DNA of 64,000 nucleotides from an uncultured bacterium (GTDB taxonomy: Bacteria > Eisenbacteria > RBG-16-71-46 > CAIMUX01 > WJJG01): NCBI GenBank assembly GCA_964573295.1, contig CAZNJE010000002.1, forward strand, positions 31,351 through 95,350, given 5' to 3'. A program made the position numbers and the translations under genes. Of this stretch, positions 13,377 through 53,950 are shown piece by piece. The notes under the pieces were generated by a model. The model was not told the origin of the DNA and searched no databases. It was given only the letters and a program-made list of their open reading frames with translations. How positions within the stretch are numbered: position 1 is the first letter of the stretch; each line of letters starts with the position of its first letter.

Positions 13377-16127
13377 CTAGCGTACGATCAGGAATCGTCC
13401 CTCCTGCTCCCCACCGCGGCCCGCGACCCGGTAAAGATACATCCCCGCGGTCACCGGCTGGCCGTGCTCGTCGCGGCCGTCCCAGTGAAGGCCCCCGACG
13501 CCCGCGGGCAACAGGCTCTCGAGGCCGCGTACCTGGCGTCCCTGGAGATCGAAGATGCTCGCCCGCACCAGGCCCCCCTGGCCGAGCTCGAAGCGTAGCG
13601 TGGTCGTGCCGGGACCCGGGTTGGGCGCGGCGCCCAGCAGGCGAAGCCCGCTCGCCAGACGGTTCTCCGCGATGCCCTGGCTGCCCTCGACGGCAAAGCT
13701 CGCCGCCGGCATGCACAGGCCCGCTTCTTCGCCGTCATCGGCGTAGGCGCGCCAGAAGTAGGTGCCGTCGGCCAGCGGCGCCGATACGGTCCAAGCTGTC
13801 TCAGATGCGCCTTCGGGCACACCGGCCGTACTCGTGACCAGGTCGGTCAACAACGCGTCCGCGTAGATCTGGAACCCGTAGGTCAACTCGTCGCCGGGAT
13901 CTGGATCGACGGCGTTGCTCACCACGAGCGTCGGCACGGACGTGTGGACGGTCTCGCCCTCACCGGGGCTCACGAGCGCCGGCGCACCCGGCGCCTGGTT
14001 TCCCGAAAGCAGGCTGGAGATGACGACGTCGTCGATATACCAACCCTCGCCGCCGGTGTTGCCGTCGGAGCCGAAGCGGAAACGGAACTGCGCCACTCCT
14101 TCCACCCCATCGAGGGTCACCGTGCCGGCGGTCCAGTCGAAGGAACCCGAGTAAACCGGCGTGTCCTCGGCAAACGGGCCCGGCTGGCTGGAGGCGCGGA
14201 TCGTGTGCGTGTAGCCCTCATCGGGCAGGACCTGCCCCCACGGCGTTCCGTTGACGGTCATCTCCACGATCCCGCCGTCATAGGCCCGGCCGGTCCAATA
14301 ACTGCTATCCTCGGCATCCATCCAGTGCCAGAAGGCGAGCTGCGTCAGGCCACCGATGGTGACCTCGGGGGTCTCGAGCACGCCGTCGGCCAGGCCCGTG
14401 TAGTCACCTGAGCCCGTGCTGCCGAACTTCCAGCTCGTGGCGCCTCCGGCGGTGTGGTTGCGGGTACCGCTCATGTGCCACTCGTCGTTGTAGCCGCTGC
14501 TCTCCACGTGATGGGTCCAGTCGCCTTGGCCGGACTCGATGTCGTCGGCGAAGACGACCGGCAGGTCACCGACCATGTACTCATGCTCGAAGGTGACCTC
14601 GAACCCATCGGCGGTCACCACGAAGCACAAGGGCATCCGATGCCCGGCCGGACAATCGGCGGCCACGGTGAAGCTGAGCGGGTTGCCGGCGTTGTCGCCC
14701 TCGCCGCGGGCCGGAATCCCGCCCAGCGACGCCTGGGCGGCACCCAGCTGCACGTAGGGATCATCGGTTACCAGGGTGACGACCGCGTTGGCGGCCGCCT
14801 CGGCAATCGCATCGTTGCGCAGCGTGAGCACCAGCTCGCAGGTCTCGCCCGGATCGGGCTTCCCGTCCATGTTGCCGCCGCTCAGGGCCAGATCCAGCAG
14901 CGTGAGGTAGATGCCCGCGGTCTTCATCAAGTAGATGTTCTTCGGAATGTTCTCGGCCACCAGGCCGGGGATCTCCGAGTCGGCCGGCCAGAAGCCCGAA
15001 CCGTCGACCTCGGTACAGAAGCTGTAGATCTTCGGCTTGCTCGTCTGCTCACCGTAGGCCCAGTCGGTCGTCGTACCCGAGCAGCTGTAGCCGATCGTCT
15101 CCCCCGCCTGGCCGATCGCATAGCCCGCTGAGCCGTTCATCGCCTGAGCAACCTCGCGGAAGAGGGCGTCATCCTCCGTGTGGGAAGTCGTCCACGACCA
15201 GGGAATGAGAATGGCGCCGTAGACGCTGTGGTAAGAATCGTGCGAGACAAACTCGTGGGCATTGATGAAGTTGACCATTGCCTGCACGCACGGCTCCGAT
15301 GCCGGCTCCGGACCCAGGTAGACGTCGCTGCAGGGATCATAGCTGATACCGCCATGGTCCCACATGTACGGATAGTTGCGGTTCGGGTCCACGCCGTAGC
15401 AGCTGCTGCCGGCGTTGTCTCGCCGGTTCTTGCGCCACATGCCCCCGCCGCCCGGGTAGGTTTGCTCGTTGTACAGATACCCGTCAGGATTGACCACCGG
15501 GACGAAGTAGGTTTGCCGGTTGTCGACCAGGTAGGTGATCTCCGGATCGGTGCCGTAATTTTCGCAGAGGGAACGGATGGTCTCGATCAAGACGTTCACC
15601 GTGATCGGCTCGCGCGCGTGGTGGAGTGCGTCGAAGAGCACCTCGGGCTCGTCGGGCTCGTCGACCTCGACATTGTCCGACAGCTTCACGGCCCAGATGT
15701 GATTGCCTTCGTGCGTGGTCCCCAGCGAGAACTTCTCGCTCAGAATTTCGGGATAGAGCGAGCTGAACTCATCGAGATAACCCACCATCTCAGTGTAGGT
15801 GTAGAAGTCGCCGAAATTGCGCTCCGAAGTACGTTGCGAGGCGTAATGCTCTTCCATGTCCGGGATCTGGATCTCGACGACGAAGCCGAGCCGCTCCAGC
15901 CGGCGGATCTGATCGTCGTGGCTCACCAGGATCAGCTCCTCCCCTGGCACGAACTCCATGATGTCGAGATCGGGAACCTCGCGCGCCAGATTCTGCAGAT
16001 CCGCCGCATCGACCCACTGCAGCCGCACCTGCACTTTGGGGTGAGAACCGGTGTAGGCATCCGCAACGCCGCAGGCGCTGACGCAGATGCCCAAGAGAAT
16101 CATGAACAGGACCAGCCGTGGGTGCAT
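13377..16127 (-). CDS. M14-family zinc carboxypeptidase with C-terminal T9SS-type (Por_Secre_tail / FlgD-Ig-like) sorting domain
   Basis: Lipoprotein-like signal (GICVSAC), M14 motifs (HAREPIT, VNPDGY), C-terminal tail ...APNPGPGTTTLRFEL...IFDLQGRQVRGL...GMYLYRV. Confidence 0.85.
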   Translation of the reverse strand: MHPRLVLFMILLGICVSACGVADAYTGSHPKVQVRLQWVDAADLQNLAREVPDLDIMEFVPGEELILVSHDDQIRRLERLGFVVEIQIPDMEEHYASQRTSERNFGDFYTYTEMVGYLDEFSSLYPEILSEKFSLGTTHEGNHIWAVKLSDNVEVDEPDEPEVLFDALHHAREPITVNVLIETIRSLCENYGTDPEITYLVDNRQTYFVPVVNPDGYLYNEQTYPGGGGMWRKNRRDNAGSSCYGVDPNRNYPYMWDHGGISYDPCSDVYLGPEPASEPCVQAMVNFINAHEFVSHDSYHSVYGAILIPWSWTTSHTEDDALFREVAQAMNGSAGYAIGQAGETIGYSCSGTTTDWAYGEQTSKPKIYSFCTEVDGSGFWPADSEIPGLVAENIPKNIYLMKTAGIYLTLLDLALSGGNMDGKPDPGETCELVLTLRNDAIAEAAANAVVTLVTDDPYVQLGAAQASLGGIPARGEGDNAGNPLSFTVAADCPAGHRMPLCFVVTADGFEVTFEHEYMVGDLPVVFADDIESGQGDWTHHVESSGYNDEWHMSGTRNHTAGGATSWKFGSTGSGDYTGLADGVLETPEVTIGGLTQLAFWHWMDAEDSSYWTGRAYDGGIVEMTVNGTPWGQVLPDEGYTHTIRASSQPGPFAEDTPVYSGSFDWTAGTVTLDGVEGVAQFRFRFGSDGNTGGEGWYIDDVVISSLLSGNQAPGAPALVSPGEGETVHTSVPTLVVSNAVDPDPGDELTYGFQIYADALLTDLVTSTAGVPEGASETAWTVSAPLADGTYFWRAYADDGEEAGLCMPAASFAVEGSQGIAENRLASGLRLLGAAPNPGPGTTTLRFELGQGGLVRASIFDLQGRQVRGLESLLPAGVGGLHWDGRDEHGQPVTAGMYLYRVAGRGGEQEGRFLIVR

Positions 16128-18826: not shown

Positions 18827-21496
18827 CTACTCCACCACCACGATCCGGCGGGTCATCTCTTGCCCCGAGGCCTGCGCACGGATGAAATAGATACCCGTCG
18901 GCACCGCATGACCCCGCTGGTCGCGTCCATCCCAATTGATGGCCGTCTCGCCCCCGTCGAGCACGCCCAGCAGAAGGGTCCGCACGCGCCGGCCGGCGGC
19001 ATCGAATAGCTCGACCCGCGCCTCGTTCGCCGAAGGCATGCGCAGCCGCAGCGTGGTTTCCCCCGAAGTCAGCGAGGGTTCGGGCCGGCTCAGGTGCAAG
19101 CGTCCTCCCGCCAGAACATCCGGCACGCCCTGCGAGCTGCTCAGAAGATACTCCACGGTGTTCTCGAGAAGCTGGCCGGCCAGGGCGCCATCGGTGAGCG
19201 CATCGTAGTCGATGGCCAGGAACACGATCTGCCCCTCGCCGCGACCGGGCATGTCATAGACCAGGATGCCGGCACCATCCGGATAGCTGCTCGTGCCGTA
19301 GACCACCGTGGCGTCGGCCAGTGGCGAGGCCGCGTCCTGATCGCCGAAGTAGTCGTAGGTCACATCCAGCGTCGACGGCAGCGCGTTTGGCAAGGTGGCC
19401 AGCGGATGGTCGCTCTGGCTCGTCCGCAGCACGAGGTCTCCGGCGTTGTCGGTGTGGTAGTCGGATAGATGCAGCACCTCGCTCGCGATCTCGGGGTAAC
19501 CCGGACTCGAGAGCGCATCGTAGGCCACCTCGCCGCCCTCGACGACCAGCTTGCCGCCGCCGGCCACGTAGCTGAGCATGGCTTCCCGGCGTCCTTCCAT
19601 CCGCAAGGGGTTCTTGTACGAGCCTGCGCTCCAGAACACGAGGTCGTAGCCGCCCCAGGTAGCCGGCTGAGTCGTGACGATCGTCTCGCGCGTCGCGCGG
19701 TAACCGAGCGCGGTTAGATCCTCGGTCACGATATTCGTGGGGTTCTCGTCGGAGACGACCAGAATCTCGGCCCTCGCGGGAGGCAGCGCGAAGTCGAGCG
19801 TCTGGTTGCCGCTCACCGTCTGGGTCTCGGTGACCGACACGTGACCGGGTGCGCTCGCCACGATCTCGTAGGTCCCCGCCGGTACTTCGGCGGTGTACTG
19901 GGCCGTGGTCTCATCGGCTTCCACCTGAAGGAACAGCTCCCCGGTGTCACTCCGGTAGACCGCCACCATGGCACCGGTGAGCGGCTGACCCGTCCCGGCC
20001 TGGTTCACGACGCCCGAGACATCGTACCAGGAACCGGCACGCTGAAGATGCACATCGTGGACCGTCGAGACGCCCTCGCTCACGGCGAGCGGCGACGAGG
20101 TGTAGGGCTGGTAGCCGTAGGACTCGATCTCCAGCGTGTAGGTGCCCGGCTCGAGCATGCGGTGGTAGAAGCCGCCGTGCGCATCGTTGTAGATTGCTTT
20201 GCCGATTTCGCCCACGTCGATCGTCGCTGGTACGGGGTTGCCGGTAGCAGCGTCGGTGATCACGCCCTCGATGCCGTTGCGCGCTTGGGCCAGCAGCCAC
20301 AGCATGGCGTCGCGATTCTCGTCCCAGAAGCTGGGCAGCTGATAGGCCGGCGGCCACTTGACGTTGCTGAGCTCAATACAGAAATGGAGTTCGTTGCGCC
20401 AGTTGTACGCCCAATCCTGGAAGCCGCCGTGGATGACGTACCATTCCCAGCCGATCGTGACGCCCTGGTAGAATTGGCCGCTGTTCCACATCGGCGGGTT
20501 GCGATACGAGTAGCCCAGCGCCAGGTTGTGTATCTGGTCGTGGTCGGGCGTGTATTGCCCGTAGAAGCAGTCCCACGGATAGTTCACCACCAGCGCCCCG
20601 CCGTGGTAGTTGACGCCGATCGTGAAGTTGTAGTCGTACTGCCAGATCATCATGTGCTGGACTTCGGTGGGCCGGCCCTCGGGGTCATCGTTGGGATCCT
20701 CGAGCGGGTCGGGGAAATTGCGGTTCAGGTCGTAACCGCTCGCGTTGTAGCGCGTGCCGGCGGCGTTGCCGTCCGGGTTGTGCAGGGGGCAGATCCAAAT
20801 CTCGAGATCGTCGACCAGGGCGGTCAGGTCCGGGTCGATGCCGTAGTTCTCCACCAAGAGCCGGATCAAATAGACGCACATCTCCATGCCCACCACCTCA
20901 TCACCATGGATCGTGGCGGTGTACTTGAAGGCCGGCTCGGGCTCATCCTCGGTCACGTTGTCCGAGAGCTTGAGCATCCACAGCTCCCGACCCTCCTCCG
21001 ACTGCCCGATCGATGTGAGCATCGCGATATCGGGATGGTCGCTGGCGATCTGCTGCAATTCCGCCGTCAGGGACTCGTAGGTGTGATAGTCCTCACGCCC
21101 CGGGGCGCGCAGGCCGGCGTCGACATCAGCCTTGAACTGCAGGAAGGCCCTACGCGCCTGGTTCGGAATGGCCTGGATCCGGTAGCCCGCCGACTCGAGA
21201 TCGGCGAAGGCGGCGTCATCGACGTAGGCCGTCACCCGCGCCCCGTCGAACTGATCGATATCGATCTCCCCAGCCTCGAGGGCCGACAACTCGAAGGGCG
21301 TGGCCACCTCGATCTGGACCGGGAAACGTCCCGTAAAGGGACAGCGATCCGCCTCGGTCGGCAAAGAGCCCTCGGAGGGAACCGCCTCGGCCAGGGCGAT
21401 CGTCACGGCTCCCCATCCCGTGAACAGAAGCAAGCAGGCCAGCGCGGTTGCGAGGTGCTGGATTGCGTTCGGGAGCCATCGGGCCATTCGGCGCAT
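18827..21496 (-). CDS. M14-family zinc carboxypeptidase with carboxypeptidase-regulatory-like and T9SS-type C-terminal sorting domains
   Basis: Signal peptide, HGDEVVG / NPDG M14 motifs, C-terminal ...TTLRLRMP...VELFDAAGRRVRTL...GIYFIRA tail. AGGAGG SD. Confidence 0.85.
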   Translation of the reverse strand: MRRMARWLPNAIQHLATALACLLLFTGWGAVTIALAEAVPSEGSLPTEADRCPFTGRFPVQIEVATPFELSALEAGEIDIDQFDGARVTAYVDDAAFADLESAGYRIQAIPNQARRAFLQFKADVDAGLRAPGREDYHTYESLTAELQQIASDHPDIAMLTSIGQSEEGRELWMLKLSDNVTEDEPEPAFKYTATIHGDEVVGMEMCVYLIRLLVENYGIDPDLTALVDDLEIWICPLHNPDGNAAGTRYNASGYDLNRNFPDPLEDPNDDPEGRPTEVQHMMIWQYDYNFTIGVNYHGGALVVNYPWDCFYGQYTPDHDQIHNLALGYSYRNPPMWNSGQFYQGVTIGWEWYVIHGGFQDWAYNWRNELHFCIELSNVKWPPAYQLPSFWDENRDAMLWLLAQARNGIEGVITDAATGNPVPATIDVGEIGKAIYNDAHGGFYHRMLEPGTYTLEIESYGYQPYTSSPLAVSEGVSTVHDVHLQRAGSWYDVSGVVNQAGTGQPLTGAMVAVYRSDTGELFLQVEADETTAQYTAEVPAGTYEIVASAPGHVSVTETQTVSGNQTLDFALPPARAEILVVSDENPTNIVTEDLTALGYRATRETIVTTQPATWGGYDLVFWSAGSYKNPLRMEGRREAMLSYVAGGGKLVVEGGEVAYDALSSPGYPEIASEVLHLSDYHTDNAGDLVLRTSQSDHPLATLPNALPSTLDVTYDYFGDQDAASPLADATVVYGTSSYPDGAGILVYDMPGRGEGQIVFLAIDYDALTDGALAGQLLENTVEYLLSSSQGVPDVLAGGRLHLSRPEPSLTSGETTLRLRMPSANEARVELFDAAGRRVRTLLLGVLDGGETAINWDGRDQRGHAVPTGIYFIRAQASGQEMTRRIVVVE

Positions 21497-28608: not shown

Positions 28609-29796
28609 ATCAACGAGTTATCATTGGATTCCGGAATCAAGGCCTAAGTCCTTGCAAGACAAAGAGTTTCGCTGTTTGCCCTTGTCAAATTTGGAGTTCG
28701 CTAAAGTATGTCGTCGTCCAGAAGCGCGACCTCAGGCTGGACAGGGCTGAACCGTGCCGGCCAGCGGCTGACCCATGCCAGCCCGCAGATAACCCGTGCC
28801 AGCCCGCAGATAACCCGTGCCAGCCCGCAGATGGCCGCTTAGCGCCAGCCCCTTTCCCGAAATGGGATGGTGGGCGGGAGCACTCGATCCACGACAGGAG
28901 GCCGCGGAGAATATCAACGCACCCTGGGCTTGTCTCACACGAATCTCAGACGAATCATCGAATTCGGTCTTGGCTTGGCGATTTTGCCAAATTACAATCT
29001 TCCCAATCTTCTTGTTGTTTCCGATCACGCCGTCGAGGAAGCTCCTCATGGATTCCGTACATAGCGCACAGCTCGAGGCACGCGCCCAGACTCTGAAGGC
29101 GATGGCTCGCCCCTTGTGGCCTTGCTCTACGCGGGAGCGGCCGTCAGCGTCCTCGCCATCATTCTCACCGCACGGATCCTGGGCCCGGAGTTCGCCGTCG
29201 AAATCCCATCCGCCCCGGGCGGTGAAGCGCACAGATAGAGAAGGCCGGAGCGATCCCGCCTCCTCCGACAACTCCACCCGGAGCAAGAGCACGAGTCGAT
29301 GGAGTATCTCTTCACAGAGTTGACCAATGCAGTCCAGGGCTCACTGGCCACCGCGTTCTTGGCCGCGCAGGTGGCCGCGCAGGTAGCCGCGCAGGTGGCC
29401 GCGCAGGTGGCCGCGCAGATGGCCGCGTTCACCTCGGGCGTTCTCAGCGTCCTCCTCAGCCCCTGCCGCCTTGCCAGCATCCCGGTCATCGCAGCCCATG
29501 ACAACCGGCTCTATGGCGGAGCCCTGCTGTTGCTCTGCGGTGTGGGGCACCGCGCGGTGATCGTCGCCGCCGGGATCTCGGCCGGCTGGGTGCACCGCGA
29601 CATGAACTGGAACGAGGCCTCCCGAGGCGGCCTCTGGTTGCGCTGCGCGAGGTTCGCTGTCGGGCTCATGGGGACTGGTGCCCACTCTCGGGCCGGATGG
29701 GCTGGTGCCCAGCAATGGACCCGAAGACAAGAGTTCTGAGAACCTGGTTCACACTGCTCGATCGCATGGTCGGGTTGGAAGGAGAACAAGTTCACC

Positions 29797-31002
29797 ATGG
29801 CAACGAAAGCTTGCATCACCAAGGAGCCCACAGGGCTCGGCTTCTTCGAACGCTACCTGACCCTGTGGGTGTTGCTCTGCATCGGCCTGGGGATCGTCTT
29901 GGGCCGGCTCGCGCCGGGGATAGCGCGCACGCTTGATGGTCTCGCGATCTACAGCGACGGCGCGCCGGTCGTCTCGATTCCCATCGCGATCTGCCTCTTC
30001 TTCATGATGTATCCAATCATGGTCAAGATCGACTTCGGGGAGGTGCTGCGTGCGGGGCGCAATGCGAAGCCGGTGACCCTGACGTTGGTCATCAACTGGC
30101 TCGTCAAGCCATTCACGATGTACGCCATCGCGTTCCTGTTCCTGGGGGTGCTCTTCCGGCAGTTCATCGGCCCCGAGGCGGTCGATCACGTCAAGATGCC
30201 CTTGGGACTGGACCTGGCCGTGGGCGAGATCTACGGGTCGGGCCGGGTCGTCCTCGTCGACGGCGTCAAGATGCTGGCCGTACCGCTGTGGCGCAGCTAT
30301 CTGGCCGGATGCCTTCTGCTGGGCATCGCCCCCTGCACGGCGATGGTGCTGGTCTGGGGCCACTTGGCCCGCGGCAACGCCGCCCACACCCTCGTCATGG
30401 TGGCGATCAACTCGCTGACCATGCTCGTTCTCTACGGCGTGCTGGGAGGATTCTTGCTGGGCGTGGGCCGCCTGCCCGTTCCTTGGCAGGCACTGCTGCT
30501 CTCGATCGGCGTCTACGTCGCCCTGCCCTTGGTGGCCGGCTATCTGTCACGCCGATGGGTCGTCTCCGCCAAGGGCGAGGCCTGGTTCCAGGAGAAGTTC
30601 CTGCACATCTTGACCCCCATCACGATCATTGCGCTCCTGCTCACCCTGGTGTTGCTCTTCTCCTTCAAGGGCGATGTCATCCTGGGAAATCCGCTGACCA
30701 TCGTCTGGATCGCGATTCCGCTCTTCTTGCAGACGGTCCTGATCTTCGCCGTGACCTACGCCCTGGCCAAGGTCCTGGGCCTGAGCTATCCGGATGCGGC
30801 CCCGTCGGCGATGATCGGCGCCTCGAACCACTTCGAGGTCGCCATCGCCACCGCGACGATGCTCTTCGGGTTGTCATCGGGCGCCGCGCTCGCTACGGTC
30901 GTGGGCGTCCTGATCGAGGTGCCCGTCATGCTCATGCTGGTGCGCATCTGTCTGCGGACGGCCGGTTGGTTTCGCCATGGGCCGGAGGGGGAAACGCCAT
31001 GA
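29797..31002 (+). CDS. acr3: ACR3-family arsenite efflux transporter
   Basis: 10-TM profile with near full-length similarity to Acr3/ArsB-type proteins ([13 protein letters not shown]..., GIAPCTAMV...). Confidence 0.9.
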
Positions 31003-31415
31003 AGAGCTATCGCAAGGAACTGTGGTTCGATATCAAGCGGCGCCGGGAGCTGATCAACATCACGCCCGATGTGGAGGCCTGCCTGCACGAGAGCGGCATT
31101 CAAGAGGGTCTGCTGCTCTGCAACGCCATGCACATCACGGCCAGCGTCTTCATCAACGACGACGAGTCCGGCCTCCATCACGACTACGAAGTCTGGCTCG
31201 AGAAGCTGGCGCCGGAGAAGCCGCACTCCCAGTACCGTCACAACAACGGCGAGGACAATGCCGACGCCCACCTGAAACGCACGATCATGGGTCGCGAAGT
31301 GGTCGTGGCAGTCACCGGCGGCAAACTGGACTTCGGCCCCTGGGAGCGAATCTTCTACGGCGAGTTCGATGGGTTGCGGCGCAAGCGGGTGTTGGTAAAG
31401 ATCATCGGCGAGTAG
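30999..31415 (+). CDS. YjbQ/UPF0047-family protein (secondary thiamine-phosphate synthase-like)
   Basis: Full-length similarity to YjbQ family ([14 protein letters not shown]......G.L.....HIT.S...N.......D...WLE...P....Y.H...G...AH...). Confidence 0.75.
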
Positions 31416-31455
31416 CGCTGGCGCGGTTGCGGGGCACAATGAGATGCGCTGACGT

Positions 31456-31574
31456 CGCACGATCGGATGCCCCACGATCGGATGCCCCACGATCGGGTGC
31501 CCCACGATCGGATGCCGCACCATCGGATGCCGCACGATCCGACGTCGTATGATCGGTCGTAGCACGATCGGCAC
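31456..31574. repeat. 15-bp tandem repeat x8 (c[ac]cacgatcggatgc) in the intergenic region upstream of the cydA-like operon
   Basis: Read directly from the sequence. Copies degenerate toward the 3' end. Confidence 0.9.
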
Positions 31575-31625
31575 ATCTTCCTACTCATAAGCTACTTAAC
31601 TAGATAGTACCTGGACAAAGTCTCA

Positions 31626-31636
31626 CCCCCCCCCCC
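31626..31636. repeat. Homopolymeric C11 tract
   Basis: Eleven consecutive C at 31626-31636, about 180 nt upstream of the cydA'-like start. Confidence 0.9.
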
Positions 31637-31816
31637 AAGCGCCACCATATTTCAGTTGCGAGCTCCGGCGGCATCCCTATCATGGCCGCCAGTTCCGGCT
31701 ACCCATCCTCAGTGTGCGTCCGCGTCACAGCGCATGCTGCCAGCCACACCCGCAACGGGCCGGGACTCATCGTCAAACCCGTGGTCGTCGACCTCTAGCC
31801 GATCGAGGAATTGCCC

Positions 31817-32881
31817 ATGGATCCCAGCGTGCTGATCCCGATCCCCGACTCGATCCCTGTTCATTGGGGTTGGTTCAAGTTCCTTCTGATCCTGACCTTC
31901 GTGCTCCACCTGCTCCTCATGAACCTCATGCTGGGCGGTGGGCTGCTGGCGCTGGGGCGCCGGCTGCGCGGGCAGGCCCCGACGGAGGAAGCTCGCAGTC
32001 TCCCGGTCTTGATCGCCCTCACGATCAACCTCGGGATCCCGCCGCTGCTCTTCGTGCAGGTGCTCTTCGGCCAGTTCCTCTACAGCAGCTCGGTGCTGAT
32101 GGCCGTGGGGTGGATCCTCGTGATCCCGGTGTTGATCGCCGCCTACTACGCGGCCTATGGGTTCGTGCACGGCGAGAAAGGGGGCGGAACGGCCGGCACG
32201 GTGTGGCTTTTCATCTCGACCCTCTTGATGCTCTTCATCGGGTTCATGCTGTCGAACAACATGACCTTGATGCTGCGGCCCGAGCGTTGGAACGTCTACT
32301 TTGCCCATCCAGGGGGCACCTATCTCAATCTGTCCGAACCGACGCTGATCCCGCGCTACCTGCATTTCGTCATGGCCTCGGTGGCGGTGGCGGGCCTGGG
32401 CCGGGCCATCTACTACCGCGTCCGCGGACCGCGGGCTGGAGAAGACGCCGGGAGCGAGGCCCAACGCGAGAAAGAGGTTCGAGGCGGATTGCGCATCTTC
32501 GGTTGGAGCACGCTTGCACAGATGGCGATCGGGCTCGTCTTCTGGATGCTCTTGCCCGAGCGGATCAACCGCCTCTTCATGGGCACCAGCCTGGTGCACA
32601 CATTCCACCTGTGGATCGGGGTGCTGCTGGCGGCACTGGCCGTCCACTTCGCCTTCCGCGGGCGGGTGTGGCTGACGACAGTCCTGACGCTGGTGACCAT
32701 CGTCTTGATGGTGGTGGTCCGCGACATGGTGCGCACCGCCTACCTGGAGCCGGTCTTCCATCCGGGCGATCTGACGGTCGTTCCGCAGGCAAATTCCCTG
32801 GTCTTCTTCCTGATCTCACTGGTCGTGGTCACCGGTGTCCTCTACTGGATGCTGCGCCAGGCGTGGAAGGCCAAGGCCTGA
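31817..32881 (+). CDS. Cytochrome bd subunit-I (CydA)-like membrane protein, short form lacking Q-loop (CydA'-like)
   Basis: 8-9 TM helices. N-terminal FVLHLLLMNLMLGGGLLALGRRLRG parallels CydA helix-1 heme-ligand His context. ATG at 31817 after CGAGGAA (TTG at 31811 is also possible). Confidence 0.7.
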   Translation: MDPSVLIPIPDSIPVHWGWFKFLLILTFVLHLLLMNLMLGGGLLALGRRLRGQAPTEEARSLPVLIALTINLGIPPLLFVQVLFGQFLYSSSVLMAVGWILVIPVLIAAYYAAYGFVHGEKGGGTAGTVWLFISTLLMLFIGFMLSNNMTLMLRPERWNVYFAHPGGTYLNLSEPTLIPRYLHFVMASVAVAGLGRAIYYRVRGPRAGEDAGSEAQREKEVRGGLRIFGWSTLAQMAIGLVFWMLLPERINRLFMGTSLVHTFHLWIGVLLAALAVHFAFRGRVWLTTVLTLVTIVLMVVVRDMVRTAYLEPVFHPGDLTVVPQANSLVFFLISLVVVTGVLYWMLRQAWKAKA

Positions 32882-32907: not shown

Positions 32908-35595
32908 GTGAACTATCCCTTTTGGCAGGTCCCGGCCATCGGCGGCGGACTGCTCATTGCCATCATTGCCATCCTGCACGTCTACATCGCCCATCTGGCG
33001 GTCGGCGGCGGACTGTTCCTGGTATTGACCGAGCGCAAGGCGCGCCGGGAGCAGGACGAGGGGCTTCTGGCCTACGTCAAGAAGCACACCCGGTTCTTCC
33101 TGCTGCTCACGATGGTCTTCGGCGGGGTCACCGGCGTGGGCATCTGGTTCATCATCTCCCTGGTCCATCCCCAGGGCACCTCGGCCCTGATTCACAACTT
33201 CGTCTTCGGATGGGCCATCGAGTGGACTTTCTTCATCGGTGAAATCGTCGCGCTTCTGCTCTACTACTACCTGTGGGACCGCCTCGCGCCGAAGGTGCAC
33301 ATGGCCCTCGGCTGGCTCTACTTCATCTTCGCCTGGCTGAGCCTCTTCGTCATCAATGGCATCCTGACCTTCATGCTGACCCCCGGACGCTGGTCGGCCA
33401 CGCTGGGGTTCTGGGACGGCTTCTTCAATCCCACCTTCTGGCCGTCCCTTCTCTTCCGCACCGGCATGGCGCTCACGATCGCCGGGATCTTCGGCCTGGT
33501 GACCGCCGCGTTCTCGAAAGAGCCATACCGGCAGAAGGTGATCCGCTATTGCGGCACCTGGATCCTGGTGCCCTTCGCGCTCACGATCGTGGGAGGCCTG
33601 TGGTACCTGGGGAGCATTCCAGCGCAGCCGCTCGAGAATATCCAGATTCGTAACCCCGAAGTGATCCCCTTCACGCACGTCTTCCTGTGGACGAGCGCCA
33701 TCGTCTTCGTGGGCGGGTTGATCGCCTTGCTGCGCCTGTCGCCGGGACTGCAACGGCTGACCGCGGTCGTCGTCATGCTGATCGGTCTCAGCTGGATCGG
33801 CGGATTCGAGTACGTACGCGAGATCGCGCGCAAGCCTTACGTCATCTTCGGCTACATGTACTCGAGCGGGGTCACGCCGGCGCAGGCCGAACAGATGAGC
33901 GAGACCGGATTCCTGTCGCAGGCGAAGTGGGCAGTCCACAAGGAGGTGACGCCCGAGAACCGGATCGAGGCCGGCAAGGAGCTTCTGACCCACCAATGCC
34001 TGATCTGTCACACGGTGGGCGGTTACAACGACGTCCTGAAACAGACCGCGAAACACAATCTGATCGGCATGACCGCCCAGCTCAGCGGCCAGGGCAAGAT
34101 CAACACCTACATGCCGCCCTTCCTGGGCACCGAGGCGGAGAAGGATGCGCTCGCCGGCTACCTCATCGAGGATCTCCATGGCAAGCAGGAGGATCCTTTC
34201 CCGGCCATCGACGTGGCGCGCAAGGAATTCACGGTGCCCGAGTTCGATCCGGAGAATGACGACTATGTCCTCCTCGCCTGGAACGACCTGGGCATGCACT
34301 GCCTCAGTGACAGCGATCCGTGGTGGGTGATCCTGCCCCCGGCGAACTCGCTGTGGGCACAGCTGGTGCGCCGCGGGCCCAGCCCCGAGTTCGTCACCGA
34401 GGGCGTGGAGCTTCGCTATGAGGTCGAGACGGGCTTCGAGCACCCCGAGCGTCACGTCGAGTTCTGGGACCACGTCGCCTCGAACTTCGGCGCCACCCTC
34501 GAGCCGCCGACCGGCCTGGCCGGCAACGCCATGAGCGGCCACATGGAGCCCAAGGAGGGCGTGGCCGCGTTCGTGGCCGAACTGGTGCCGGTCGTGCCCT
34601 ACCCAGACAGCGGCATCTACGACCCCTACCCCACCTTCACGATCGAGGCCTACGACACCGCGACCGGCGAGCGGATCGCCCAGACGCGCATGGTGGCGCC
34701 CACCAGCTCCGAGATGGGTTGCAAAAATTGCCACGGCGGCGAGTGGAGGTTCCAGAATCAGGCCGGCTTCACGGCCGAGACCAGCCGCGACATCCTCCGC
34801 GTGCACGATCGGATGAGCCGCACGAACCTGCTGGCCGAGGCCGAGGCGGGTAGTCCCAAGATCTGCGGCGCCTGCCATCAGGACCTGGCCCTGGGCACCG
34901 AGGGAGATCCCGAGCTACTGAACCTCCCCACCGCCATTCACGGCTTCCACGCCAACTACATGCCCGACATGGAGGAGACCGCATGCCTCCTGTGCCATCC
35001 ATCCCGTTGGGACGGGGCCACCCGTTGCCTGCGAGGCCGGCACGGATCGCAGGTAGGCCTCACCTGCGTCGAATGCCACGGCACCCTGGAGGACCACGCG
35101 CTCTCGCTGGTGAAGCATGAGCACGAGGCGGGCAAGAAGGGCGCAGCCCGGCTCATGGCGCACCTGGAGCCCGATGCGGTGGCTTCGGTGGAGGAGATCA
35201 ACGGCCGGATGCCCTGGATCCACGAGCCCGACTGCCTGAATTGCCATCGCGCCTTCGAGCTACCCGACAGCGTCAAGGCCACCATCACCCACCAGGCCTT
35301 CCTCGACGCCGATGTGATCATGCAGTTCAACGCCTTCAACGAATGGACCACCGGCGGCGACCAGCTCTACCGCAACCGCACCGACTCGCGGGGCGTGATG
35401 TGCATCGCCTGTCACGGATCGCCGCATGCGATCTATCCGGCCGAGAACGCGATGGCCGAGGATCTGGATAACATTCCGCCCTTGCAGTACCAGGGCATCG
35501 CGGGCACCATCGGAACCGAGACAAGCTGCACAGTTTGCCACACGGTCCCGCGGACCCAGGAAGGCCATCACCGCCGCATCCTCTACCGTGATTAG
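32908..35595 (+). CDS. CydA-like quinol-binding membrane domain fused to a periplasmic octaheme c-type cytochrome domain
   Basis: Residues 1-310 align to CydA landmarks (ILHVYIAH helix-1 His; AIEWTFFIGE; LWDRLAPKVHM versus E. coli GWDRLGKVQHM). The C-terminal ~540 aa carry eight CxxCH motifs (CLICH, CKNCH, CGACH, CLLCH, CVECH, CLNCH, CIACH, CTVCH). GTG start with CGAGG SD. Confidence 0.85.
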   Translation: MNYPFWQVPAIGGGLLIAIIAILHVYIAHLAVGGGLFLVLTERKARREQDEGLLAYVKKHTRFFLLLTMVFGGVTGVGIWFIISLVHPQGTSALIHNFVFGWAIEWTFFIGEIVALLLYYYLWDRLAPKVHMALGWLYFIFAWLSLFVINGILTFMLTPGRWSATLGFWDGFFNPTFWPSLLFRTGMALTIAGIFGLVTAAFSKEPYRQKVIRYCGTWILVPFALTIVGGLWYLGSIPAQPLENIQIRNPEVIPFTHVFLWTSAIVFVGGLIALLRLSPGLQRLTAVVVMLIGLSWIGGFEYVREIARKPYVIFGYMYSSGVTPAQAEQMSETGFLSQAKWAVHKEVTPENRIEAGKELLTHQCLICHTVGGYNDVLKQTAKHNLIGMTAQLSGQGKINTYMPPFLGTEAEKDALAGYLIEDLHGKQEDPFPAIDVARKEFTVPEFDPENDDYVLLAWNDLGMHCLSDSDPWWVILPPANSLWAQLVRRGPSPEFVTEGVELRYEVETGFEHPERHVEFWDHVASNFGATLEPPTGLAGNAMSGHMEPKEGVAAFVAELVPVVPYPDSGIYDPYPTFTIEAYDTATGERIAQTRMVAPTSSEMGCKNCHGGEWRFQNQAGFTAETSRDILRVHDRMSRTNLLAEAEAGSPKICGACHQDLALGTEGDPELLNLPTAIHGFHANYMPDMEETACLLCHPSRWDGATRCLRGRHGSQVGLTCVECHGTLEDHALSLVKHEHEAGKKGAARLMAHLEPDAVASVEEINGRMPWIHEPDCLNCHRAFELPDSVKATITHQAFLDADVIMQFNAFNEWTTGGDQLYRNRTDSRGVMCIACHGSPHAIYPAENAMAEDLDNIPPLQYQGIAGTIGTETSCTVCHTVPRTQEGHHRRILYRD

Positions 35596-35606: not shown

Positions 35607-36098
35607 ATGAGCGAACAGAAGTCGACGCACGCGATGGAAGGCGCCGCCGCGAGGTTTGAACAGGTCGAGGGCTTGATCTACGTACTCGCCGGGATTCTGC
35701 TGGCGGTCGTAGCCGTCGTCATCCTCGGCCATGCGGTCTACATGTTCATCGACCACATCATGAAGGGAGACTTCGGCAGCGCGGTGATCACGATGCTCGA
35801 GGAGCTGCTCCTGGGACTCATGGCCGCCGAGCTCCTCTACACGGTCACCGTCTCGCTCCGTACGCACAGCCTCTCGGCCGAACCGTTTCTGATCGTGGGG
35901 ATGATCGCCGCGGTGCGCCGAATCTTGACGATCTCGGTCGAGGCGGCCCACCTGTTCGCCAAGGATCCGGAGAAATTCAAGCTGGCGCTCTATGAGATCG
36001 GCCTGCTGACCGTGGCGGTCTTGATCCTGGTCATCTCCGTCTACGTGCTGCGCAAGGCGCGCCAGACCTCGCCCGGCGATCTGAGACCGGCCGGCTGA
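35607..36098 (+). CDS. PsiE-like (phosphate-starvation-inducible E family) small membrane protein
   Basis: 163 aa, 4 TM, helix pattern resembling PsiE. ATG follows GAGGGA, 12 nt after the cytochrome stop. Confidence 0.5.
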   Translation: MSEQKSTHAMEGAAARFEQVEGLIYVLAGILLAVVAVVILGHAVYMFIDHIMKGDFGSAVITMLEELLLGLMAAELLYTVTVSLRTHSLSAEPFLIVGMIAAVRRILTISVEAAHLFAKDPEKFKLALYEIGLLTVAVLILVISVYVLRKARQTSPGDLRPAG

Positions 36099-36108
36099 TT
36101 CGCACGCC

Positions 36109-37158
36109 ATGGCAGCTCGCGAGGTGGACGTGCAAGCCGGGCAACACCGGCTCCGACTGGACCGATTCCTCCGCGAGGCCTGCCCGGAGCTCAGCCACAA
36201 GGACATCGAGCGGCTGCTACGGACCGGGGCGGTCGAGATCTTCTCGGGATCCTCATCCGGAGTTTCGGAGCAGGGGCACGAGGAGCGGGGCCGAGTCGGT
36301 AACCACCGAACCTATGTGAAGCGGGGTGATCGGGTGCGCATCCGCGACCACCCGCAGGACGCAAAGACCGGTTCCGAACAGCCGGCGGCCCCCCCACGCA
36401 TCCTCGAGCGCTCAGCGCACCTTCTCGTCGTCGGCAAGCCACCCGGCATGCCGACCGTGCCGGTAGCCAGCGAGACGAAGGCCGATGGAAAGAAGGCCGA
36501 CAGGGCGAAGGCCGACAGGGCGAAGGCCGACAGGGCGAAGGCCGGCGCTCGGACGAGTCTCCTCGAGTGGGTTTCCAACGAACTGGCTGGTGAGGAGCCT
36601 CGACTTCATCCGGGCGTCCTCCATCGTCTGGATCAGGCCACCTCGGGGATCCTGCTCTTCTCGCTCAGCCCTACCGGACACCGCGTGGTGACGAGGCTTC
36701 TTCGCCAGCGAACGCTCGAGAAGCGATACCTGGGTGTGATCCGCGGCCAGCTATCACCAGCAACCGGAAGCATAGAACTGCCGCTGATGCGGGATGCATC
36801 GGGGCGGATGCGCGCCGCTGCCGCCGGCGCCCCCAGCCGGACCGGCTACCGCACGATCGAGTCGGGGAATGGGTGGAGCCTCCTCGAACTGGATCTCCAC
36901 ACCGGCCGCTTCCATCAGCTCCGGGCTCATCTGGCCGCGCTCCGCCATCCCCTCCTGGGGGATGACCGCTACGGCAGTCCCACACCCGAACTCACGCCGC
37001 CGCGCTTGTGGCTCCATGCCGCCCGGTTAGCGTTCCCACCCGAAGAGGCAAGGCGGCTTGGAGTACCTGCAACCCTGGTGTGCCCTCTCTGGCCGGATCT
37101 CGAGGCTCACCTTTCCACGTGCCTCCGTACCCACCCACGCGGCCGGGCCGGCAGCTGA
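36109..37158 (+). CDS. RluA-family 23S rRNA/tRNA pseudouridine synthase (S4 domain N-terminus)
   Basis: HRLDQATSGILLF catalytic motif, ...RFHQLRAHL. In-frame (KADRA)x3 insertion from a 15-bp repeat. Confidence 0.85.
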   Translation: MAAREVDVQAGQHRLRLDRFLREACPELSHKDIERLLRTGAVEIFSGSSSGVSEQGHEERGRVGNHRTYVKRGDRVRIRDHPQDAKTGSEQPAAPPRILERSAHLLVVGKPPGMPTVPVASETKADGKKADRAKADRAKADRAKAGARTSLLEWVSNELAGEEPRLHPGVLHRLDQATSGILLFSLSPTGHRVVTRLLRQRTLEKRYLGVIRGQLSPATGSIELPLMRDASGRMRAAAAGAPSRTGYRTIESGNGWSLLELDLHTGRFHQLRAHLAALRHPLLGDDRYGSPTPELTPPRLWLHAARLAFPPEEARRLGVPATLVCPLWPDLEAHLSTCLRTHPRGRAGS

Positions 37159-37219
37159 TCAGATCCCGGCCCGCGTACCCACCCGCGCGGCCGGGCCGGC
37201 AGCTGATCAGGTCCCGGCC
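37126..37219. terminator. Duplicated ~48-bp element with GGCCGGG...CCCGGCC stem-loop between convergent rluA-like and TDT transporter genes
   Basis: Two direct copies (37126-37171 and 37174-37219), each containing a 7-bp inverted repeat flanking a 17-nt loop. Positioned at the 3' ends of both convergent genes. Confidence 0.45.
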
Positions 37220-38525: not shown

Positions 38526-39458
38526 TTGGATCAGCAATCCAGAGCCTATCTGCACGGACTGGGCGCCGTGCTGGCGTGGTCGACCGTGGCATCGGCCTTC
38601 AAGCTGACGCTGCGGGAGCTGACGCCGGTGGCCATGCTCTTCTACGCGTCCCTGACCTCCCTGCTCATCCTGCTGGCCATCTTGACCTGGCAGGGCCGTC
38701 TGGGGGTCTTGAGGCAGATCCGGGGTCGCGAGTGGCTCGCCTATGCCGGGCTCGGGTTCCTCAACCCGTTTCTCTACTACACGATCCTCTTCCGCGCCTA
38801 CCAGCTCCTGCCCGGCCAGGAGGCTCAGGCTCTCAATTACACCTGGGCCATCACGCTGGCGCTCTTGTCGATTCCGATTCTGAAGCAGCGTATCCGGCCC
38901 GCCAGCCTCGTGGCGCTCGTGATCAGCTTTGCGGGGGTCTGGGTCATCTCCACACGGGGGGACGTGTTCTCGACGCACTTCGCCGAGCCGGTGGGCGTGC
39001 TGCTGGCGGTGGGCAGTTCGGTCGTTTGGGCGCTCTTCTGGATCGGCAACGTGCGCGATCCTCGGGACGAGATCGTCAAGCTGGCCCTGTGTTTCGTCTT
39101 CGGTACCGCCTTCGTGGGCCTCTACGCCCTGGCAACCGGGGATCCCTTGGCGGTGCGGTGGCCGGGGGTCGCCGGGGCAATCTACGCCGGCCTCTTCGAG
39201 ATGGGTCTCACGTTCGTCCTGTGGCTCACGGCCCTGCGGCTCTCACGCACGACCGCGCAGGTAGGCAACCTCATCTTCCTGTCGCCCTTCATCTCACTGG
39301 TGCTGCTTCACTTCGTGGTCGGTGAGGAGATCTTCCGCTCCTCGATCGTGGGGCTGGTACTCATCCTCGCCGGCATCGCCCTGCAGCGGCGCACCGACCG
39401 GATCACTCGGCAAACCGCGCCAGTGAGCCAACCCGCCGCCGGCAGCTGTGATCCGTGA
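38526..39458 (+). CDS. EamA/DMT-family transporter
   Basis: Two EamA-like 5-TM halves. TTG start preceded by GGGGAGGAGGG. Confidence 0.8.
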   Translation: MDQQSRAYLHGLGAVLAWSTVASAFKLTLRELTPVAMLFYASLTSLLILLAILTWQGRLGVLRQIRGREWLAYAGLGFLNPFLYYTILFRAYQLLPGQEAQALNYTWAITLALLSIPILKQRIRPASLVALVISFAGVWVISTRGDVFSTHFAEPVGVLLAVGSSVVWALFWIGNVRDPRDEIVKLALCFVFGTAFVGLYALATGDPLAVRWPGVAGAIYAGLFEMGLTFVLWLTALRLSRTTAQVGNLIFLSPFISLVLLHFVVGEEIFRSSIVGLVLILAGIALQRRTDRITRQTAPVSQPAAGSCDP

Positions 39459-39536
39459 GCCCACCCGCCCGGCCGGCAGCAGTGAACCGTGAGCCACCCG
39501 CCCGGCCGGCGGCCGCGAGACCGCAAGCTGGGCGCG

Positions 39537-46732: not shown

Positions 46733-46864
46733 GGCCCATCTGCGCCGCCCCCGAGCCTCCTTGGCGCCAGCCCGGCGGCCCATCTGCGCCGCCCCCGAGC
46801 CTCCTTGGCGCCAGCCCGGCGGCCCATCTGCGCCGCCCCCGAGCCTCCTCAGCGCCGGCTGGTC
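46733..46864. repeat. 44-bp tandem repeat x3 downstream of glnS
   Basis: cccatctgcgccgcccccgagcctccttggcgccagcccggcgg repeated with a 44-nt period (46735, 46779, 46823). Confidence 0.9.
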
Positions 46865-48569
46865 AGGGTTGTATCGACTTCTTGATCTTCGCCCAAGTGT
46901 CGCGCAGGGTCACCGTCCGGTTGAACACGGGCGCCGCGGGACTCGAGTCTTCCGAATCCATGCAGAAATAACCCTGGCGCTCGAACTGCAGAAAATCCCC
47001 TATTCGAGCCTCGGCCGCCGCGGGCTCGACCTTGCAACCTGGCAGAACCGTGAGGGAGTCGGAATTGATGCTGTCGACGAACGACCCCCCCTCGGGCACC
47101 TCCTGCGGGTTCTCCTTGGTGAAGAGGTGGTCGTAGAGGCGGACCTCGGCATCATGGGCGTGCTGAGCCGATACCCAGTGCAACGTAGCTTTCACCTTGC
47201 GGCCGTCGGGCGCGTTCCCGCCCCGCGTGGCAGGATCATAGGTGCAGCGCAACTCGACGATCTCGCCGGTGGCTGGGTCCTTGACGACTTCCTCGCACTT
47301 GATGAAATAAGCGTAGCGCAGGCGCACCTCCCGGCCGGGGCCCAGACGGAAGAACTTCTTGGGCGGGTCCTCCATGAAGTCATCACGCTCGATGTAGAGC
47401 TCACCGGAGAACGGGACCATTCGAGTACCGGCCGAAGCGTCCTCGGGGTTGTTGATGCACTCGACCTCTTCGGCCTCATTCACCGGGTAGTTCGTGATCA
47501 CGACCTTGAGCGGCTTGAGAACCGCCATGAGCCGCTGGGCCCGCTTGTTCAGGTCCTCCCGCAGGCAGAACTCGAGCAGGGCCAGGTCCACCACGTTCTC
47601 GCGTTTGGCGATTCCGATACGTCCCAGGAAGTCGCGGATCGCGGGCGGCGAATAGCCCCGCCGACGCATCCCCTTGAGGGTGGGCATCCGTGGGTCGTCC
47701 CAGCCGGCCACGTAGCCTTCCTCCACGAGCTGGCGCAGACGACGCTTGCTCAGCACCGTGTTGGTCATGTTCATGCGGGCGAACTCATACTGCTTCGAGG
47801 GAAAGACCCCCAGGGTCTCGATGTACCAGTCGTAGAGCGGCCGGTGATCGACGAACTCGATCGAACACAGCGAATGGGTCACCCGCTCGATCGAATCCGA
47901 CAGGCAGTGGGTGAAGTCGTACATCGGGTAGATGCACCATGTGTCCCCGGTCCGGTGGTGGTGCGCACGAAGGATGCGGTAGACCACCGGATCGCGCATG
48001 TTTAGGTTGCCGGCCGCCATGTCGATCTTCGCCCGCAGGGTCCGGGACCCGTCGGGAAATTCCCCGGCTCGCATGCGCGTGAACAGATCCAGGTTCTCCT
48101 CGATCGAGCGATCTCGGAAGGGGCTCTCCTTGCCCGGCTCGGTGAGCGTGCCCCGGTACTCGCGCATCTGGTCGGGTGTGAGGTCGCAGACGTAGGCCTT
48201 GCCCATCTTGACCAGCTGGATCGCGTAGTCGTAGAGCTGCTCGAAGTAGTCGGAGGCGAAGTAGAGCCGGTCCTCCCAGTCGTAGCCGAGCCAGCGAATG
48301 TCGGCCTGGATGCCGTCGACGAACTCCTGCTCTTCCTTGATCGGGTTGGTGTCGTCGAAGCGCAGGTTGCACTGGCCACCGAATTCCTCGGCCACGCTGA
48401 AGTTCAGGTGAATCGCCTTGGCGTGCCCGATGTGGAGATATCCGTTCGGCTCCGGGGGAAAGCGAGTCTGAACGGTCTCGTGCTTCCCCGCGGCCAGATC
48501 GGTCTGGATGATCGCCCGCACGAAATCCACCTGGGCCGTCTCGTTCGAGTTCTTCGTCGGATCGCTCAT
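46863..48569 (-). CDS. glnS: Glutaminyl-tRNA synthetase
   Basis: HIGH ([12 protein letters not shown]) and KMSKS-like (VLSKRR) motifs, anticodon-binding beta-barrels. ATG at 48569. Confidence 0.9.
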
Positions 48570-48678
48570 GTGAACATCTCTCCCGCGCGAGGCCTTCGCG
48601 CTCCATGTCTCCGCAGCGACTCTCCGGGGCATTCGTGTGATGCCATCGGGCTCGCCCTCGGCCGCCCGATCGCGCTCT

Positions 48679-48750
48679 CCCTCGCTGGTCGGACCGGGTG
48701 CCCCCTCGCTGGTCGGACCGGGCACCCCCCCGCTGGTCCGACCGGGCCGA
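48679..48750. repeat. 24-bp tandem repeat x3 between gltX and glnS
   Basis: ctcgctggtcggaccgggtgcccc-like units at 48681, 48705 and 48729. Confidence 0.85.
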
Positions 48751-48756
48751 CCCGAC

Positions 48757-50250
48757 CTACTCACCTCCGAAGAGAGCGGCGTACTCCTTCTCCAGTTTCT
48801 TGAGCCGTTTCGAGGAGACGCCACCCAGCAGCTCGATCGCCCGGCGCAATCGCATGCGCACCATGTCCGAGCCCAGCACCTCCATCGAGCCGTAGAGCGG
48901 CGTCCACACCTTGGTGCCACTCAAGGCCACATAGAGCGGCAAATTGAGGTCGCGGACCTTGACCTCGATCCGCTCGGCGATCTGCTTCAGGCAACCCTCG
49001 ATCCGTTCGGCGGTGAACTCCCGCAGCTTCTCGAGCTCCCAGACCACCATCTGCAGAATCGCTACCAGGTCTTCCACCTCCTTGCCCTTCATTTTCAGCT
49101 GCTCGAGATCCACCGCCACCTCGTCGCTGAAGAAGGGTGCGGTCAAACGGCCCCAGTCGGCCATCGTCTCGAGCCGGGGATGGATCAAGGGCATGATGCG
49201 GTCGAAAGTCTCGGTGTTCAAGGCCCAGGCTTCGAGCTGGCGCCGCAGGCCCTGGTCGTCGTAATCCTCGCGCAGGTACCGGCCGTTGAGCCAGCGCAGC
49301 TTGTCGGTGTCGAAGACCGGCCCGCCCAGGGAGATATCCTCCAGCTTCAGGTGCTCGGCCATCTGCTCGCGGGTGAACTTCTCCTCCCCATCGGGCATCA
49401 ACCAGCCCATCATCCCCAGGAAGTTCAGCAGCGCTTCGGGCAAATAGCCGGCGCGCCGGTAGTAGTGGATCGAGGTCGGGTTCTTGCGCTTCGAGAGCTT
49501 GGTCTTGTTGGCATCGTTGTTGCGCAAGAGGGGCAGGTGGCAGAAGACCGGAGGCTCCCACCCGAAATGCTCGTAGAGCTTCAGGTGCTTCGGCACCGAG
49601 TTGATCCACTCCTCGCCGCGGATGACGTGGGTCACCCCCATCAGATGGTCATCGACCACGTTGGCCAGATGGTAGGTCGGCAACCCGTCGGACTTCATGA
49701 TCACCTGGTCGTCGACCGAGGCCCAGTCCTTGCGAATCTCGCCGCGCAGGAGATCGTGCATCACGCACTCGCCTTCCAGCGGGATCTTAATCCGGACCAC
49801 GTGCGGCTCTCCCGCCTTCGCCCGGCGTTGCGCCTCTTCGGGCGGGATCGACCGGCAGTGGCGGTCGTAGCCCAACTGGGAGGCCTTCTCGGCCTGCAGG
49901 CGGACCCGCATCTCATCGAGCCGCTCCTTCGTGCAGAAGCAGCGGTAGGCGTGCCCGGCCTCCAGCAGGCGCTCCACGTGCTCGGTGTAGATTGCCGAGC
50001 GCTCGCTCTGGCGGTATGGCGCGTGCGGACCGCCCACATCGGGCCCTTCGTCCCACTGCAACCCGAGCCAGCGCAGCGAGGAAAGGATGGCCTCCTCGGA
50101 CTGCTTGGTGGAACGTACCTGGTCGGTGTCCTCGATGCGAAGGATGAACGTGCCGCCGCGGCCCTTCGCGAAGGCGTGGTTGAACAGCGCCTGGTACGCC
50201 GTACCGACGTGGGGATCCCCGGTCGGCGAAGGCGCGATGCGGGTGCGCAC
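48757..50250 (-). CDS. gltX: Glutamyl-tRNA synthetase
   Basis: HIGH ([12 protein letters not shown]) and KLSKR motifs. A GTG at 50250 gives the canonical (M)[11 protein letters not shown]-terminus. The ORF stays open to 50457, encoding a Pro-rich low-complexity extension. Confidence 0.85.
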
Positions 50251-53657: not shown

Positions 53658-53950
53658 AGCTTTCCCCCCTCCGGCCTCGACCCTCCCTAGTGAGGGCCGG
53701 TGGGCACTCGGATACGTTCCACAATTATACCGCATCCGAGGGCCGTCCCCGCCGGTGACGCCACGGGAGTGGCGCATTCCACGCAAGACCTCCACTCCCG
53801 CAACCCCCTGGCGCGGAAATGTTTCCGTCCGTGAGGCTGAAGGCGGCCGGATGGAACGTCGTCTCAATGCGCGCCCTGGGCGTGGCTCTCCGGCTGCCCG
53901 TGGGGCCGGCGAGCGCCGCCCCCCAGGTGTCTCCTGGTGCCTGAGCGGTC

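Follow-up and report, generated by a model that had tools for sequence, protein, structure and literature searches.

Tandem repeats between yjbQ and a conserved predicted promoter are probably hypervariable spacer DNA in an uncultured bacterium

Several bacteria carry repeats whose length changes by slippage close to promoters. In Neisseria and Haemophilus, promoter-spacer SSRs include the poly-G/C tracts of porA and opc and the TA repeats of hif, and an upstream SSR is the TAAA repeat of nadA. The spacer type needs a location between the -35 and -10 hexamers, and the upstream type acts via defined regulator or IHF sites. In Bordetella pertussis, the poly(C) tracts of fim2 and fim3 determine where BvgA~P sits with respect to RNA polymerase, and altering the tract by one C abolishes transcription; strains have this tract in common (PMC10172299). 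The VNTRs of Burkholderia pseudomallei are mostly intergenic, highly polymorphic arrays, mostly without a known phenotype (U'Ren et al. 2007, PMC1853098).

Here we compare with these systems a repeat-rich leader from an uncultured bacterium, found in a 64,000-nt stretch of DNA that was analysed as a whole (the window). The G + C content of the window was 64.3%, lower than the ~68% given in the initial annotation. Upstream of the leader lies yjbQ/UPF0047 (30999–31415, + strand, 138 aa; Pfam PF01894, E 1.9e-36), whose ATG overlaps the stop codon of an SBF-family symporter gene (29797–31002). Downstream lies an operon. Its first gene (31817–32881, + strand) encodes a 354-aa polytopic membrane protein belonging to no Pfam family, and its second (32908–35595, + strand) an 895-aa protein in which a CydA-like N-terminal membrane domain is fused to a multihaem cytochrome c (PF01654, PF14522, PF22113 and PF14537). 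The operon had been called cydA-like from its first gene onward. The Cyt_bd_oxida_I domain is indeed present, but in the second gene; the first had no Pfam match, and its product showed only a faint N-terminal likeness to that of the next gene (BLASTP E 0.15). Homologues of the 354-aa protein numbered 874 at E <= 1e-20. A PsiE gene (35607–36098) completes the operon. The pair of genes for the 354-aa and 895-aa proteins is very widespread: the genome collection has at least 589 such loci, spread over Bacteroidota, Desulfobacterota, Ignavibacteria and others. Neither product has a functional name in the protein sources.

Elsewhere in the window there were three genes for large secreted peptidases, two M14 and one S8 (13377–16127, 18827–21496 and 50691–53996). 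The second M14 and the S8 peptidase carried C-terminal FlgD_ig domains. FlgD_ig-tailed secreted peptidases are typical of some uncultured FCB-group-like lineages.

The gap between the stop codon of yjbQ (31415) and the ATG at 31817 measured 401 nt. The 395 bp reported for it before refer to a real gap, counted to an upstream TTG at 31811. After the yjbQ stop, the leader consisted of a short unique stretch, a GC-rich array of eight units, a 50-nt AT-rich segment and a run of eleven C (C11). No intrinsic terminator was predicted after yjbQ.

The array (31456–31575, no strand assigned) is made of eight head-to-tail 15-bp units with the consensus CCCACGATCGGATGC, as seen by TRF and in a table of the units, and so agrees with the initial annotation. 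The unit formula proposed there, c[ac]cacgatcggatgc, was slightly wrong, the second base being g or c. TRF reported a period of 15 and 8.1 copies at 31451–31571, and within these a core (31458–31539) whose 5.5 copies are 92% identical. From the first to the eighth, the units matched the consensus at 14, 15, 14, 15, 13, 11, 9 and 9 of 15 positions. Units 1–5 were thus near-perfect and units 6–8, at the 3' side, degenerate. GATC or near-GATC was found in all eight units. They have in common the core CACGA(T/G)C(G/C)G, with a CGATCG palindrome per unit in the lineage of the window. The period corresponds to 1.4 helical turns, so the units are not in helical phase. Eight copies is the highest number among the arrays of the window. 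Unit length and partial degeneracy (8 x 15 bp, 9–15 of 15 positions matching) are those of an intergenic VNTR or minisatellite, with units of ~10–100 bp. A second assembly (Logan, SRR7048224; L001), possibly made from the same reads as the window, had the identical eight units and C11. Within the segment that follows the array there was one copy of an AT-rich 15-mer, CTCATAAGCTACTTA (31584–31598, no strand assigned), recognized from alignments and the unit table.

The eleven consecutive C reported earlier were found at 31626–31636 (+ strand), starting 50 nt beyond the last array unit. No homopolymer of the window other than C11 was longer than 8, and C11 exceeds the length at which phase-variation SSRs of any type can slip (about 8 or more). 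Such runs had been described as rare, which holds as far as they are uncommon: under a first-order Markov model, 64 kb would be expected to hold ~0.13 C/G runs of this length or longer. C11 is not unique at genome scale, since the other fetched bacterial loci (1.39 Mb) contained four C/G runs of at least 9, one of them of at least 11. That one was a C15 at 12710 of L059, a locus of a Desulfomicrobium MAG with a homologous operon. The two assemblies having C11, which possibly share reads, agreed in its length.

A consensus scan of 31300–31900 recognized a single sigma-70-like site, compared with 0.2 expected from shuffles. This predicted promoter (31656–31683, + strand) has a -35 hexamer TTGCGA (31656–31661), a 16-nt spacer and a -10 hexamer TATCAT (31678–31683). 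The same site was present in a contig of a sister population (L084, see below). Judging from its position, transcription would start near 31690, and the putative 5' UTR (31684–31816, + strand) includes a Shine-Dalgarno sequence, GAGGA, at 31805–31809. Directly upstream, and abutting the -35 hexamer, the alignment and the comparison of leaders revealed a conserved block, AAGCGCCACCATATTTCAG (31637–31655, + strand), whose (A/T)TTTC part was retained in distant relatives. A sigma-54 motif (TGGCAC-N5-TTGC) was not seen by eye.

Homologous leaders were collected by protein-guided locus searches and exact-protein look-ups. The motif TTGC(G/A)n-N16-TAT(C/G)AT was present in nine of the ten leaders compared, in relatives down to ~63% protein identity, and its spacer was invariably 16 nt. 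The carriers were the window, L084, L087, L002, L003, L094, L092, L096 and L082, with the motif 53–134 nt 5' of the start codon. It was kept even where the upstream gene was not yjbQ, namely a C25 peptidase (L092), an ABC transporter (L096) or a FlgD_ig-tailed protein (L082). In L003, L094 and L082 the motif begins ~20–25 nt past the upstream stop codon, leaving no space for repeats. It was preceded by (A/T)TTTC and followed downstream by a GGTYCCGG-like sequence. The resulting block of ~60 nt, (A/T)TTTC-TTGC(G/A)n-N16-TAT(C/G)AT-...GGTYCCGG, was located at 31637–31700 in the window, at ~1170–1230 in L002 and at ~8755–8810 in L003, as well as in the leaders of L094, L092, L096 and L082. This pattern of conservation provides the best evidence for the operon's promoter, which the block probably is, perhaps with an operator as well.

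Relative to this promoter, C11 ends 19 nt and the array 80 nt upstream of the -35 hexamer. Counted from the presumed start, C11 would span about -64 to -54, the array about -234 to -115. The predicted promoter being downstream of both, neither can change the -35/-10 spacing. The spacer was 16 nt and non-repetitive in all nine loci having the element, with no tract between the hexamers. These data speak against the phase-variable promoter spacing that the initial annotation had proposed. A start of transcription downstream of both elements was among the observations named there as refuting the proposal, and this is where the predicted promoter puts it. Any effect on expression would be indirect, through what lies upstream of -54. 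A tract of the activator-phasing type separates a defined activator site from the RNA polymerase contacts; among the relatives compared there was no conserved sequence upstream of the C tract, where a site of this kind may or may not be present.

The upstream part of the leader had a different history. Five contigs from other samples (L084, L085, L086, L090 and L091) form a sister population with 93–95% nucleotide identity to the window and a 97% identical 354-aa protein. Promoter and 5' UTR were almost identical between the two, and the part upstream had diverged. In a 90% relative (L087–L089), a 65-nt stretch of the 5' UTR was absent. The position of C11 was occupied by CCACCG in the sister population and by CTCCC in the 90% relative. 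The AT-rich 15-mer was present in five tandem copies (TTCATAAGCTACTTG x5) in the sister population versus one in the window, which lacks 60 nt (4 x 15) in the alignment. The GC-rich arrays of the sister population were built from other unit variants, for example CACGAGCCGACGCCG and CACGAGCCGACATCG, and GATC was gone from most units. L084 had 8 units and L085 had 7, whereas the array of L090, of different composition, had no fewer than 7; the difference between L084 and L085 rests on metagenome assemblies of ~5x coverage. The first and last units were common to both lineages, and the inner units were homogenised differently. A conserved edge with differently homogenised inner units is the usual signature of minisatellite turnover. 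Both copy number and unit composition therefore differ between close genomes, as in VNTRs, with the reservation that these are metagenome assemblies, some at ~5x.

Sister contigs had longer leaders (456 and 441 nt) than the window (401 nt). Shorter ones, of 177, 303 and 184 nt, were found in the 90% relative, an 80% relative (L002) and a 75% relative (L003), respectively, and these three had neither array nor C tract. A search of the 90% relative for a proto-unit that could have seeded the array gave an 8-nt match only. The view that these are sites of slipped-strand mispairing is supported on an evolutionary scale, by the length differences of the sister leaders at the array, the AT-rich 15-mer and the C tract. 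L086, L090 and L091 break inside the arrays; we attribute the breaks to repeated k-mers, and they are not evidence of heterogeneity. Regarding further strain variants, a metagenome scan gave two distant loci only, and an exact look-up of the YjbQ protein gave no match.

Tandem repeats were frequent throughout the window. TRF, run with the same settings on all sequences, found 26 loci per 64 kb (0.41/kb), compared with 0.46–0.70/kb in the sister contigs, 0.40/kb in L002 and 0.05/kb in L003. In 80 loci from other bacteria (1.3 Mb) the density was 0.065/kb, so the window is about six times denser. Based on a rough gene map, drawn from ORF length and GC3 with starts corrected by homologues, ~17 of the 26 loci fell in the ~16% of the window outside GC3-supported ORFs. 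The density was 1.7/kb in noncoding versus 0.17/kb in coding DNA (binomial p 1.6e-8). The leader array is thus one of many such loci, mostly intergenic. Although it has the most copies in the window, it otherwise behaves like them, and nothing ties it specifically to the cytochrome operon, which it had been suggested to control.

Window and sister contigs could be aligned over ~25.4–38.7 kb. There, nearly all indels of at least 3 nt were in or beside tandem repeat loci and mostly comprised whole units: 42 nt (2x21) at 25445, 68 nt (4x17) at 26807, 42 nt at 27289, 21 nt at 28780, 60 nt (4x15) at 31587, and 45 or 30 nt (3x15 or 2x15) at 36542. The last site belongs to an in-frame 15-nt repeat (GAAGGCCGACAGGGC x3.5, 36476–36544) in the N-terminal part of an RluA-like pseudouridine synthase gene (36109–37158). 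The sister genes were 30 or 45 nt longer, encoding 359 and 364 aa versus 349 aa in the window.

Other repeats were recorded along the window. A gene-poor region of ~1.2 kb (28609–29796), flanked by the SBF symporter gene and one resembling a spermidine synthase gene, contained a 21-mer x3.9 and a 12-mer x5.7. Four of its blocks, of 42–215 nt, were absent in L084, where the 146-aa ORF at 29299–29739 was uncalled. Two different convergent intergenic regions held the repeats 37126–37219 (48-mer x2) and 39423–39510 (34-mer x2.7). These have the common core CCCACCCGC(G/C)CGGCCGG...CAGC, showing that some repeat units recur at separate loci; both repeats could be terminator-associated. The longest ORF of the GlnRS gene measured 685 aa (46863–48920, - strand), and the identical database protein has 568 aa, which places the true start near 48569. 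A 24-mer x2.9 repeat (48679–48747) is consequently upstream of the gene and not within it. The best named matches of GlnRS were ~70% identical and belonged to mixed phyla.

Among the described systems, the VNTR load of genomes rich in repeats and in GC, such as that of B. pseudomallei, is the closest match. Both have many short-period arrays, mainly intergenic, whose copy number varies between strains, and in both some unit motifs recur at other loci (here 37126–37219 and 39423–39510). The periods differ, being mostly 11–48 bp in the window and 6–9 bp in B. pseudomallei, and so does the material, since polymorphism was seen in isolates there and is deduced from metagenome assemblies in the uncultured lineage here. 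With B. pertussis fim2/fim3 the locus has in common a C homopolymer of similar length in a promoter region. However, the Bordetella tract lies inside the promoter, with the activator site on one side and the polymerase contacts on the other, whereas C11 lies upstream of a canonical-looking -35 hexamer. The Bordetella tract is conserved, and C11 was absent from all relatives compared; an activator site was not identified in the leader. As in Neisseria and Haemophilus, near-promoter repeats change length by slippage, but neither C11 nor the array is between -35 and -10, and no regulator or IHF site was identified. The locus has the defining features of a VNTR and not that of promoter-spacer phase variation.

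Because the repeats lie upstream of the conserved promoter, are absent in close relatives and have many similar counterparts in the genome, they are most likely ordinary spacer DNA. We consider it probable that array and C11 are hypervariable VNTR/SSR spacer DNA upstream of a conserved operon promoter, and that they belong to an excess of short tandem repeats extending over the whole genome of this uncultured lineage. They would be young, lineage-specific and generated by slippage, a minisatellite/VNTR in one case and a homopolymeric SSR in the other. Such repeats would have accumulated in the DNA that separates yjbQ from the sigma-70-type promoter, and would grow, shrink and homogenise through slipped-strand mispairing or unequal recombination, making 31416–31636 expandable spacer DNA. 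The operon of the 354-aa and CydA-multihaem proteins would be driven by the conserved promoter at 31656–31683, and the repeats would be largely neutral for its expression, although they may tune the promoter. A point against neutrality is that both 15-mer arrays and the C tract are clustered in one 180-nt stretch just 5' of the promoter.

This clustering of three different length-variable elements directly upstream of one promoter would fit a contingency or rheostat locus. There, C11 and possibly the arrays would set the distance or helical phase between the core promoter and a site further upstream, either architectural or bound by an activator, that might lie in the AT-rich 15-mer, for instance. 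Slippage would then tune or switch expression of the respiratory operon. In model bacteria, alpha-CTD or class I activators act in the zone just upstream of -35. The C tract falls in this zone and borders the conserved promoter block, so that its length may affect expression; it is long enough to slip, and no other run in the window exceeds 8. The fim poly(C) of Bordetella offers a precedent (PMC10172299). We nevertheless regard such a locus as unlikely here. The tract is upstream of the -35 hexamer and outside the spacer, and relatives that retain the promoter have neither the tract nor the two arrays. Upstream of the tract no conserved site was found, the sister populations have different array units, most comparable repeat loci are equally variable, and the two assemblies having C11 showed no length difference. 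A wider form of the idea, in which the GC-rich array, the AT-rich array and the poly-C together make up a contingency module that diversifies expression of the respiratory complex within the population, has in our view a small chance of being right. If it were true, SSR-based bet-hedging, as in host-associated pathogens, would extend to energy metabolism in free-living bacteria, and the locus would exemplify how SSRs diversify the expression of respiratory genes in an environmental bacterium.

The regular head-to-tail units, each with the core CACGA(T/G)C(G/C)G and a CGATCG palindrome, resemble a multimerised operator, in which eight 15-mers would bind a transcription factor regulating the operon or yjbQ. 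Site multimerisation had also been put forward in the initial annotation, with a search for further copies of the 15-mer as a check. An iterated operator would be expected to be conserved at orthologous promoters or to recur elsewhere. In the sister population the units had turned into CACGAGCCGACATCG and others with GATC mostly lost, and the array was absent at 90%, 80% and 75% identity (L087, L002 and L003) and from the leaders of L094, L092, L096 and L082. Allowing up to 2 mismatches, the 13-mer core of the array had 7 matches in the 64-kb window, 5 of them in the array itself, compared with 3.9 expected; the 2 outside were no more than in shuffles. The other fetched loci gave single near-matches only. 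With the array 115–234 nt upstream of the predicted start and its period out of helical phase, an operator is very unlikely. An action at the RNA level was considered as well: on transcripts reading through from yjbQ, which is followed by no predicted terminator, the units (CCACGAUCGG) could mask the Shine-Dalgarno sequence via CCGAUCGAGG, or the intercistronic RNA could be structured. Three array units (CCACGATCGG, 31472–31511) were indeed complementary at 9 of 10 nt to CCGATCGAGG (31799–31808), at the Shine-Dalgarno sequence of the gene for the 354-aa protein. This complementarity comes mainly from the 6-nt palindrome CGATCG and was lost in the sister arrays, and transcripts starting at the conserved promoter would not include the array. 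Rfam gave no match for 31300–31900 at E <= 1, and neither 31416–31640 (z -0.34) nor the putative 5' UTR (z 0.03) folded better than shuffles, as a structured leader or riboswitch would. We judge an RNA element to be extremely unlikely. That the array and C11 are an artefact of assembly or sequencing is hardly credible. Related contigs (L086, L090 and L091) do break inside arrays and some assemblies have low coverage, but the same eight units and C11 were present in a second assembly, homologous arrays were found in five contigs of other samples, the unique flanks of array and C tract aligned cleanly, and a typical read pair spans more than the 120 nt of the array.

Two further candidates were rejected. 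An iteron-type replication origin is excluded by the GC skew, which is uniformly negative and has no switch across the window; there was also no initiator gene, near relatives lacked the array, and its neighbours are the symporter gene, yjbQ and the cytochrome operon. A 38-aa ORF (MAASSGYPSSVC..., 31682–31798), with an ATG overlapping the -10 hexamer, was examined as a leader peptide. Five of its seven substitutions relative to the sister population fell in one codon phase, but its frame was broken in L087 by the 65-nt gap and had no stop in L002. This ORF is probably not a gene. In L084 and L085, 88-aa gene calls start inside the AT-rich array.

The outcome for the leader is routine: the feature is real and its mutability supported, and a role as dedicated regulator is not. 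A striking repeat beside an unusual operon appears here as a genome-wide habit outside the promoter core, and should not be annotated as a regulatory switch. The tandem repeats also account for the intergenic breaks in assemblies of this lineage. As by-products, the comparison yielded a well-footprinted predicted promoter block for a widespread, uncharacterised operon, and a lineage in which the density of tandem repeats is about six times that of comparable loci. Most of the repeats compared differ between populations, and they could serve as strain markers in metagenomes.
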